From a virus (Duplodnaviria > Caudoviricetes), in IMG/VR virus record IMGVR_UViG_3300030102_001931, positions 1 through 34,842 of that record: a stretch of 34,842 bases of DNA; one strand, written 5' to 3'. Position 1 is the stretch's first letter. Every line of letters starts with the position of its first letter. Both the position numbers and the translations under genes were made by a program. Below are positions 7,335 to 9,421 of the stretch, one piece after another. The notes under the pieces were generated by a model. It saw nothing but the letters and a program-made list of their open reading frames with translations, was not told where the DNA came from and searched no databases.

Positions 7335-7830
7335 TCTAGTAAGTTTAGCGGTGGAGAAAGCGTGGTCAAATGCTGCCAATGCAACCGAAGCCAAGGACAG
7401 GTATCTCGAGATGTTGAAGACGGATGAAGCATTGCGGACGGAGGCAACGGCTCGATACCTAGAGAAGATCGCACGTTGGGATACAGTTGTACGTCCTAAA
7501 TTAGATCGTGCCATGTTCAAGAGGCACGTTCTGAGCAAGGGTCAGACATCGACACCGAATGTATCGCGCAAGAATACGATGAAGATGTACGCGAAAGATT
7601 TGTTTGAGACACTCAGGTTGCCGGAGACAGGTGTTAAACTTGGGCAAGCAACGCGTCAGGACTTGGACAAGGCTATCTCGTTTGAGAAGTCTAGGGCGCA
7701 GCACCACACGCACCAACAGAGTTTTTGGTCTTCAATACAGAAGCGTCTTAAAAAAGACGATGCAATGGTCAAGGATGTTTGGACACCAGTAGAGATAGAG
7801 CAGACATACGAGGAGATATTGAACAAATGA
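7318..7830 (+). CDS. Basic 170-aa hypothetical protein abutting the TIGR array
   Basis: AAGGAGG SD; stop codon 8 nt before the first array unit. Confidence 0.8.
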   Translation: MNQKVSLVSLAVEKAWSNAANATEAKDRYLEMLKTDEALRTEATARYLEKIARWDTVVRPKLDRAMFKRHVLSKGQTSTPNVSRKNTMKMYAKDLFETLRLPETGVKLGQATRQDLDKAISFEKSRAQHHTHQQSFWSSIQKRLKKDDAMVKDVWTPVEIEQTYEEILNK

Positions 7831-7838
7831 TTAGTTAT

Positions 7839-8453
7839 GGGAGCCGTCATGACTGCGCAGTAATGCCTATGGAGGACCGCTCCCACCAGTTAGGGGAGGG
7901 TCATCAATGCGGCGCAGCAATGCCCCCTTTCGGGCACCCTTCCCGATCAGTTTATGGAGGCCAAAAATCCGCCACAGGAACGTCACCCCGACACCGCCTC
8001 CACCAGTTAGGGGAGGGTCAAGCTATCGGCGCAGCAATGCCATTAGAGATCTGCCCTTCCCGATCAGTTTATGGGAGCCAGTCGCGTTACGCAGCAATGC
8101 CCTGCAACCAATTGCTCCCACCAGTTAGGGGAGGGTCACGAAGCCGTCGCAGCAATGCCCCTGTGAACACACCCTCCTCGATTAGTTTTACGGAGGCCAA
8201 AAATCCTCCACAGGATCGTCACACCGACACCGCCTCCACCAATTTACGAGAGGTCAGCTTCGATTCGCAGAAATGCCATTTATCGAACGCCTCTCAAGGG
8301 AAGGGTCAATTAACCATCACAGGAATGTCATAAGGAGAACACCCTTCCACCAGTTTTGGGCCACTCTTCTAACTCCGAAAGGACAAGACGCCGCCGCCCA
8401 ATTTCACCAGAGGCCAACATAAAAACGCAGCAATGCCAAAAGGAACCCGCCTC
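7839..8453 (+). ncRNA. Stem-loop TIGR array (tandem interspaced guide RNA), 11 dual-spacer units
   Basis: Each unit = stem-CA-9 nt spacer A-13 nt loop repeat (CGCAGCAATGCCA type)-9 nt spacer B-Y-stem. Units at 7839-7884, 7893-7944, 7956-8001, 8010-8061, 8073-8119, 8128-8179, 8192-8237, 8248-8295, 8299-8348, 8356-8401, 8410-8453. Confidence 0.88.
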
Positions 8454-8472
8454 GCAACCAAGGAGATCCAAT

Positions 8473-9210
8473 ATGGATACAAGATATGAAGACCCGACTA
8501 TCGCACAAATAAACTACTACTGGCGTGACCGCCAGAACATGGTACGAGCCGACACCAAACTGGTGTTGCAGATTAAAGCCATGTGCCGATCTTTACGAGA
8601 CGGTGACAAGAAAGAAGGTGATAAGTTCTACAAAGAACTAAGCACTGGTCAGGCTACACTGATCGAATACTCACAGTTCAATGCGTTGTTCGAGGCACGT
8701 AAGCCAATACTGCAAGAGCGTAAGCGTCTTGAAAAACAACTAGCCAACTATGCCAAGATACTGCCTGTCTCAACTTTTGTAGACAAGGTAAAAGGTTTCG
8801 GGCATCTTGGTCTTGCAGCCACTGTTGGAGAGATAGGCGACTTCATGGCCTATGACAAAGAACTTGACGGAATATACAAACGTGCAGGACTTGCCGTTAT
8901 TGAAGGTGAGCGTCAACGCAAACACTCCAACAAAGACATGGCTATACTGCATGGCTACAGTCCATCAAGACACGCTGTATTCTGGACAATCGGAGACAGT
9001 TTGTTGAAAGCCCAAGGAAAAGAAGAGAACGCAGGTCCATACAGACAAATCTATGACACTCGAAAGTTGATGGAACGTGAGAGAGTTGAGACGGACGGAC
9101 ACGCCCACAACAGGGCACTGCGGTACATGACTAAACGACTGATTAAAGATCTATACATAGAATGGAAAGGAGTATCTGATGATCAAGGAGTTCTGGAAAC
9201 GATTAACTAG
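8473..9210 (+). CDS. tasA: TasA-like RNA-guided DNA-binding protein (Nop/IS110 C-terminal domain, no RuvC/HNH)
   Basis: 245 aa from ATG 8473 (AAGGAG SD at 8460-65). Coiled coil, then VKGFGHLGLAATVGEIGDF, YKRAGL and HAHNRALRYMTKRLIKDLY motifs; no DEDD RuvC domain; directly follows the array. Confidence 0.85.
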   Translation: MDTRYEDPTIAQINYYWRDRQNMVRADTKLVLQIKAMCRSLRDGDKKEGDKFYKELSTGQATLIEYSQFNALFEARKPILQERKRLEKQLANYAKILPVSTFVDKVKGFGHLGLAATVGEIGDFMAYDKELDGIYKRAGLAVIEGERQRKHSNKDMAILHGYSPSRHAVFWTIGDSLLKAQGKEENAGPYRQIYDTRKLMERERVETDGHAHNRALRYMTKRLIKDLYIEWKGVSDDQGVLETIN

Positions 9211-9421
9211 CAAGCAGCAAACTAATCAGAAGCTGTCACGCAAGGAGCAGATCCTTGCTGAGTTGGAGAGAGGTCAGGGAACCGCGAGGCAACTATCGGA
9301 TCGCATGGGTTTGAAGCTCTCGATCATTCGACCACAACTATCGGCGCTGCACAACAAAGGATTAATTCGTGACACGAATGTAGATGCAGGGGCCGAGGGC
9401 GTATGGGAGGTGGTCAAATAG
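9179..9421 (+). CDS. Winged-HTH DNA-binding protein
   Basis: EQILAEL...TARQLSDRMGLKLSIIRPQLSALHNKGLI. Confidence 0.8.
   Translation: MIKEFWKRLTSKQQTNQKLSRKEQILAELERGQGTARQLSDRMGLKLSIIRPQLSALHNKGLIRDTNVDAGAEGVWEVVK

Follow-up and report, generated by a model that had tools for sequence, protein, structure and literature searches.

The described systems closest to the one analyzed here are the stem-loop TIGR-TasA systems represented by PlTasA, MbTasA, and BlTasA. In the accessible parts of their descriptions, a solo Nop protein adjoins stem-loop units with two 9-nt spacers and box C/D pairing, and an 18-bp target is addressed on two strands. MbTasA and PlTasA bind DNA tightly in a guide-dependent manner and repress without cutting, as far as the available text of the two reports goes (bioRxiv 10.64898/2026.09.09.750476; bioRxiv 10.64898/2026.08.11.744272), and TasR opens 18 bp of its target, which becomes sharply bent. 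Genuine TIGR targets are hard to identify according to the accessible sections of PMC12045711, in which a role of TasA as integrase aid was a matter of speculation.

The locus studied here lies in a stretch of 34,842 nt of viral DNA, called the window below, and shares with these systems the solo Nop protein, the adjoining stem-loop units, the two 9-nt spacers, the box C/D pairing, and a putative two-strand target of 18 bp. Its units also have a loop hairpin, as described for some TasA clades in the available text, whereas box D, which starts with U in the accessible descriptions of PlTasA, MbTasA, and BlTasA, mostly starts with C in the window. A further difference is that a natural target was identified for the window TasA, whereas the available parts of PMC12045711 and of the two preprints leave theirs mostly undetermined. 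tRNA targets are not mentioned in the main text of both preprints; PMC12045711 mentions tRNA twice, in its references, and the accessible part of its supplements has no tRNA target among the matches listed. The literature searched, which covered few subscription journals, described no Tas guide directed at a tRNA or att site, and the available parts of PMC9599517, PMC9618062, PMC11288001, and 10.64898/2026.09.22.753630 contained nothing deciding host or target.

Several other RNA-guided systems share single traits with the window system, as judged from the accessible parts of the reports cited. Cas12r-CRISPR of Thermus Lalka phages (bioRxiv 10.64898/2026.04.20.719267) is likewise phage-borne, RNA-guided, aimed at tRNA-integrating elements, and involved in conflict between elements, but it uses a CRISPR effector, its protospacers lie between two att copies and not in them, and Lalka phages carry integrases. 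VIPR (bioRxiv 10.64898/2026.04.26.720920), whose targets include a satellite and prophages, and Cas12m or type IV CRISPR (PMC11656645), directed against rival mobile elements, share the non-cutting guided repression; they differ in protein and guide code, and their targets are genes of the elements rather than a shared att core. CAST homing guides (I-F, V-K; PMC11656645) recognize conserved sites at tRNA genes, but direct insertion by a Tn7-like transposase, whereas the window TasA is accompanied by neither transposase nor integrase. The IS110 bridge-RNA recombinases have an RNA-binding domain related to the window TasA; in contrast to it, they possess an N-terminal DEDD domain and a single bridge RNA instead of a many-guide array.

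TIGR array and TasA protein of a marine phage

The window belongs to an HTVC023P-like marine phage. It encodes a family A polymerase, an AEP primase, a UvrD helicase, and podovirus-like virion genes, and its polymerase is 48-52% identical to those of HTVC023P-type phages. The nearest cultured phages (polA 48-52%, TerL 52-60% identity) have SAR11, a gammaproteobacterium, or no identified organism as host. One further record (G311) contains the whole window at 99.97% identity plus 13 kb of extra sequence, in which an ORF of 1555 aa without PHROG match (L277:4601-9265) adjoins the terminase just beyond the window. The sequencing runs with the array stretch were marine or aquatic metagenomes and one run labelled as organism. 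The features relevant here are the following:

7838..8453, plus strand: stem-loop TIGR array of 11 units (unit parsing, folds)
7838..7885, plus strand: unit 1, target like a ribosome-binding site plus start codon
7956..8001, plus strand: unit 3 guide, spacer A 7964-7972, spacer B 7986-7994; target tRNA-Phe(GAA) 35-52, rarer allele
8073..8119, plus strand: unit 5, one-base bulge after spacer B; no target found
8192..8237, plus strand: unit 7 guide, spacer A 8200-8208, spacer B 8222-8230; target tRNA-Phe(GAA) 35-52
8299..8348, plus strand: unit 9, exact target absent from viral_contigs
8410-8453, plus strand: unit 11, reads like a ribosome-binding site plus start codon
8473..9210, plus strand: tasA, 245 aa, coiled coil and Nop domain, no nuclease domain (sequence, profile, and structure-model searches)
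9179..9421, plus strand: small helix-turn-helix gene overlapping the end (stop) of tasA (ORF search)

All 11 units have palindromic stems, two spacers within 8-12 nt, and paired box C and box D flanks. Within its outer stem, each unit carries two 9-nt spacers, first A and then B, both preceded by a box C and followed by a box D, and a 10-nt hairpin separates the two halves; box D of window-type units is mostly the C-initial variant. The edge pair of box C and box D covaries across units and was C-G, T-A, or T-G in 259 of 274 distinct units, a count obtained with a parser that favors pairing. The array ends 20 nt before the start of tasA. In the RNA run X15, two pieces of tasA were covered and the array was not; RNA runs contained small shares only. 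A frame of 184 codons crosses the array (window 7779-8333), tasA itself has an in-frame upstream extension (8356-9210), and in record G315 (L289:1656-2786) the tasA frame begins about 140 codons farther upstream (377 aa) and spans the array region.

TasA matched the TasR protein of TIGR-TasR 9MTY with an E-value of 1e-11 in phmmer and of 1.4e-21 in a profile search, and the alignment was confined to TasR residues 131-296. The structure model (pLDDT 94) is nearly all helical from residue 8, and TasR and TasH were its best Foldseek matches (TM 0.61-0.66). Neither the model nor the profile match revealed an HNH or RuvC domain in the 245-aa protein, so the effector is predicted to be of the non-cutting type, in line with an earlier reading made from the sequence alone. 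With a Nop-domain Tas protein adjoining the array, the system fits the nuclease-less, stem-loop TasA class in the accessible text of PMC12045711. A likeness to IS110-related proteins was also seen (Foldseek match to 8wt9, E 7.6e-3; PHROG label 'transposase'), but the N-terminal DEDD catalytic domain of IS110 recombinases is absent, and TasA offers neither room nor fold for one.

Phages whose backbones differ in replication genes and range from 41 to 56% GC (L001-L053, G311-G315) share this array scaffold and a TasA of one clade (66-100% identity), and the module therefore appears to move between phages. More distant relatives with 39-49% identity (L320, L323, L328, L332-L334, L339, L342) have stem-loop arrays with 6-nt loops; some of their arrays flank the gene on both sides, and some come from isolate-genome records.

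Match of units 3 and 7 to tRNA-Phe

When spacer A is joined to the reverse complement of spacer B, units 3 and 7 each rebuild a segment of tRNA-Phe with 18 of 18 matches over positions 35-52 of tRNA-Phe(GAA). Relative to the tRNA, spacer A is in sense and spacer B in antisense orientation; the target is therefore duplex DNA, and the two spacers would address opposite strands of one 18-bp site. The gap-free join speaks for this targeting rule, as the sequence-only reading had argued: the real join matched with gap 0 only, and other joins of the same spacers had no exact match in 1.1 Mb, a control that is lenient in that these loci had been fetched with the real join.

In a search for exact matches of both 18-mers, all 62 viral matches were tRNA-Phe genes or att-like halves: both halves of the tRNA were present in 33, the 3′ half only in 28, and the 5′ part only in one, which makes 29 partial copies. 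The unit 7 target accounted for 57 loci on 51 viral contigs, with an ARAGORN-called tRNA-Phe at the match in 24. For unit 3 there were five loci in viral_contigs, four in the ARAGORN-called tRNA-Phe(GAA) gene of one phage population and one in an att-like 3′ half. In genome_contigs the unit 3 target had at least 134 matches at no fewer than 130 loci; among the 134 matches listed, 124 stood in strict tRNA-Phe context, seven were degenerate att-like copies, and three were unrelated. A pattern covering four tRNA-Phe alleles was found in 83 of 301 Alphaproteobacteria-class and 29 of 301 Gammaproteobacteria-class genomes, and the same pattern read backward, which served as control, in none of either set. 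The unit 3 allele occurred in no Alpha- or Gammaproteobacteria genome sampled besides the two search centers.

The earlier suggestion that the 18-mers predict the host was rejected, the alleles being spread over Alphaproteobacteria, Gammaproteobacteria, and other phyla. The argument of the same reading that the two guides differ as natural alleles do is weaker than it seemed: in our own count over 201 genomes, 13 of the 54 single-base neighbors of the middle allele, roughly a quarter, occur naturally, and target positions 8 and 17 vary family-wide, being among those that vary most between related guides.

For the recurrence of the guide, 53 related loci from the first search and five metagenome loci were combined, which gave 226 distinct guides from 55 arrays. 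A tRNA-Phe guide was present in six distinct arrays and in three alleles, and two arrays hold two copies. Three of the six (window/L001, L002, L003) were found by protein search and are all three records whose TasA is ≥97% identical; the other three were found with the tRNA-guide pattern itself. The tRNA-Phe guide was kept across the six arrays while other guides turned over: of the window's guides, L002 has one in exact form and L291 has none, and both still target the tRNA-Phe site, whereas L295 has kept both window alleles in an array of three guides in total. In a 2023 contig from another study (run X5), units 1 and 10 differ from the window, and all nine listed substitutions lie outside the tRNA spacers. 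The units with tRNA guides have a common outer stem and related hairpins and look like one lineage, and their carriers have near-identical TasA proteins (≥97% where measured). Some non-tRNA guides are more widespread than the tRNA-Phe guides.

A recognizable target was found for 3 of the 226 guides. Against att-bearing elements, the approximately 223 other guides gave no matches above control joins, and co-targeting of att-bearing phages and satellites was likewise at control level; hence no particular rival can be linked to the array. Two non-tRNA guides had no viral matches at all. No tRNA other than tRNA-Phe was within three mismatches of a guide in a small library of 129 tRNAs, 52 of them Phe. 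The unit 1 target had five viral loci for two alleles and one for the window allele, numbers that may be due to chance. Guides resembling a Shine-Dalgarno sequence plus start codon numbered 7 of 226 compared to 2.1 in shuffles, but the excess does not establish mimicry of such sites (units 1, 9, 11), with 3.8 in re-paired halves (64 of 1000 reaching 7) and 6 with the wrong join. The idea that guides of related arrays mimic T7-like promoters was dropped, since 127 kb of T7-like loci showed no enrichment and there was no exact viral match. A codon-type periodicity was not supported, the guide variants being split 40/46/44 by distance mod 3. Targeting of the phage itself (no window guide within three mismatches of the window) and of its kin (five carrier records at control level) was discarded as well. 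A palindrome of a C-run and a G-run is rebuilt by several guides (last units of L010, L043, L053, L316), and copies of the motif with two and three mismatches lie near 26-29 kb in G314; it is possibly a cis element of rival phages.

Elements bearing the target

The proposal that the target is a common att core agreed with the matches of the guides: the site lies within att repeats, an integrase is nearby at many loci, and the unit 7 allele is found in the att sites of phages and satellites that encode an integrase. An integrase lies close to no fewer than 30 of the 57 unit 7 loci. From 39 loci, made up of L056 and 38 unit 7 loci, 40 ORFs were picked by hand; 30 of them matched Phage_integrase or Arm-DNA-bind, and PF00589 was found in 17 of 20 chosen target-bearing records. 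An annotated attP showed that tRNA-Phe is a real attB. In the accessible text of PMC4383910, anticodon-centered att sites make up 2083 of 3919 islands, with about half of the tRNA-island crossovers in the anticodon loop.

Six elements of 10.1-10.6 kb carry two att copies. The repeat begins at tRNA position 29 and extends to position 76 or beyond in five of them, and the repeat therefore contains the 35-52 target; in the sixth it is cut by the contig end. Five of the six were scanned, and terminase and capsid genes were detected in all five and a portal gene in four. These elements of approximately 10 kb presumably resemble capsid-forming PICIs. Among L300, L302, L304, L305, and L315, all of about 10 kb with tRNA-Phe att repeats, most have an integrase and a portal gene too, and the scanned ORFs included no tail gene. 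Many of the matching satellites have a GC content of 55-65%. In a group of phages with 30-32% GC, an att site consisting of the 3′ half adjoins the integrase; the integrase of an att-bearing 32%-GC phage had low-depth coverage in one of four runs containing the array, and one att-like contig was found in X1, an overlap too slight to indicate co-occurrence. A complete T7-like phage with an integrase (L255:7816-7867, G004) carries the 5′ two-thirds of tRNA-Phe, a piece whose end coincides with the end of the guide target and which is missing from the close relatives fetched.

Possible roles of the tRNA-Phe guides

Among the readings considered, blocking of the integration or excision of rival elements is the best fit. 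We see about an even chance that the ribonucleoprotein occupies the att core in tRNA-Phe and thereby blocks excision or integration of rivals. By analogy with other TIGR systems, the array units would be processed into guides, spacers A and B would pair with opposite DNA strands, and guide-loaded TasA would bind tightly and repress without cutting, possibly with the 18-bp unwinding and sharp DNA bend known from TasR. The 18 bp would start in the 3′ part of the anticodon loop and span the adjoining arm, where anticodon-type crossovers occur, and recombination by a tyrosine integrase should be impossible at an occupied core. During infection, resident satellites would thus be kept from excising and rival phages from integrating, which would protect the lytic phage from satellites excising on infection and from temperate competitors. 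A single guide could cover unrelated elements sharing the tRNA-Phe site, and binding would extend to the tRNA-Phe gene of the host if its allele matches. The more general idea that lytic marine phages clamp the tRNA att core without cutting, and so lock all site-sharing satellites and temperate phages in or out of the chromosome, with guide alleles following att variants, is held more tentatively; it would make anti-recombination a new activity of RNA-guided systems.

For the blocking of att sites count the 62 of 62 viral matches to tRNA-Phe or att-like sequences, the retention of the guide in six arrays, and the lack of an integrase in the carriers. Since att cores consist of host tRNA gene sequence, however, the sequence cannot separate an att site from the host gene. 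Against it count chiefly the failure of the other guides to match these elements above control, and further the 55-65% GC of many matching satellites, which may not be marine, and the viral matches of unit 3, which mostly (four of five) lie in a phage tRNA gene and not in an att site. As these four are the tRNA-Phe of a large phage's tRNA cluster, approximately 9 of the 57 unit 7 loci are tRNA clusters of phages as well, and TasA represses transcription in other systems, the guides might instead repress tRNA-Phe genes of large co-infecting phages, where a roadblock in the cluster would silence downstream tRNAs too. We consider this unlikely, given that the 86-kb contig of the large phage was not matched by other guides above controls and that the unit 7 matches include more att-type copies than phage tRNA genes.

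Silencing of the host tRNA-Phe gene or operon for host takeover would account for the exact matches to chromosomal tRNA-Phe genes, and several alleles could serve several hosts; in the available text of bioRxiv 10.64898/2026.09.09.750476, a native chromosomal gene was silenced by TasA in E. coli. Yet the five TasA-carrying phage records contain no tRNA gene, and with 166 Phe codons among 4464 sampled they need the tRNA-Phe of the host. tRNAs are long-lived, so that blocked synthesis would do little within one lytic cycle, and a guide serving only for repression need not sit on the anticodon loop. The probability of this explanation is likewise low.

A guide captured by chance from host or element DNA, then duplicated and drifted, may have been noticed only because a tRNA is conserved enough to be recognized. 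The single unit lineage with its same outer stem and related hairpins, the variation at positions that vary family-wide, the 3 of 226 guides with recognizable target, and the natural occurrence of about a quarter of the single-base neighbors are what such a history would leave. On the other hand, each of the three alleles is a genuine tRNA-Phe sequence, the target was kept while its neighbors were replaced, two arrays hold two copies, and binding to an essential host gene should be costly; we therefore regard chance capture as rather improbable.

That TasA brings the phage DNA to tRNA-Phe so that it integrates there, comparable to CAST homing guides and as the earlier idea of a guide to the phage's own attachment site implied, would agree with tRNA-Phe being a real attB and with the integrase-aid role proposed in the accessible part of PMC12045711. 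However, PF00589 was found in none of the five carrier records, two of which are 99-100% complete and the closest only 84% complete, and all five also lack tRNA genes, which makes self-integration unlikely. These records have no tRNA-Phe-like piece within three mismatches, the window ORFs include no transposase or recombinase, and the window, as previously noted, has no tRNA gene (none by tRNA search, no Rfam family), so that we give this possibility very little weight. Pairing of the guide with tRNA-Phe RNA in the manner of snoRNAs is hardly credible, for although the Nop domain, the box C/D layout, and a spacer B complementary to the variable loop and T stem would suit it, spacer A is sense to tRNA-Phe, unlike a box C/D sRNA guide antisense to its RNA target, and fits a duplex target only, TasR is inactive on RNA, and there is no methyltransferase partner among the neighboring window ORFs.

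Natural TIGR targets were named an open question in the accessible parts of PMC12045711 and bioRxiv 10.64898/2026.09.09.750476. The target described here, exact, gap-free, and recurring, belongs to a natural TasA guide and, at the sequence level, supports the rule that a wild stem-loop system also addresses two strands. It opens a simple assay, TasA with one guide versus a tRNA-Phe integrase. On the sequence data, an anti-recombination role of the window TasA is plausible; if att sites are indeed blocked, the system would represent a new phage counter to satellites and could serve as a programmable means of keeping islands where they are.
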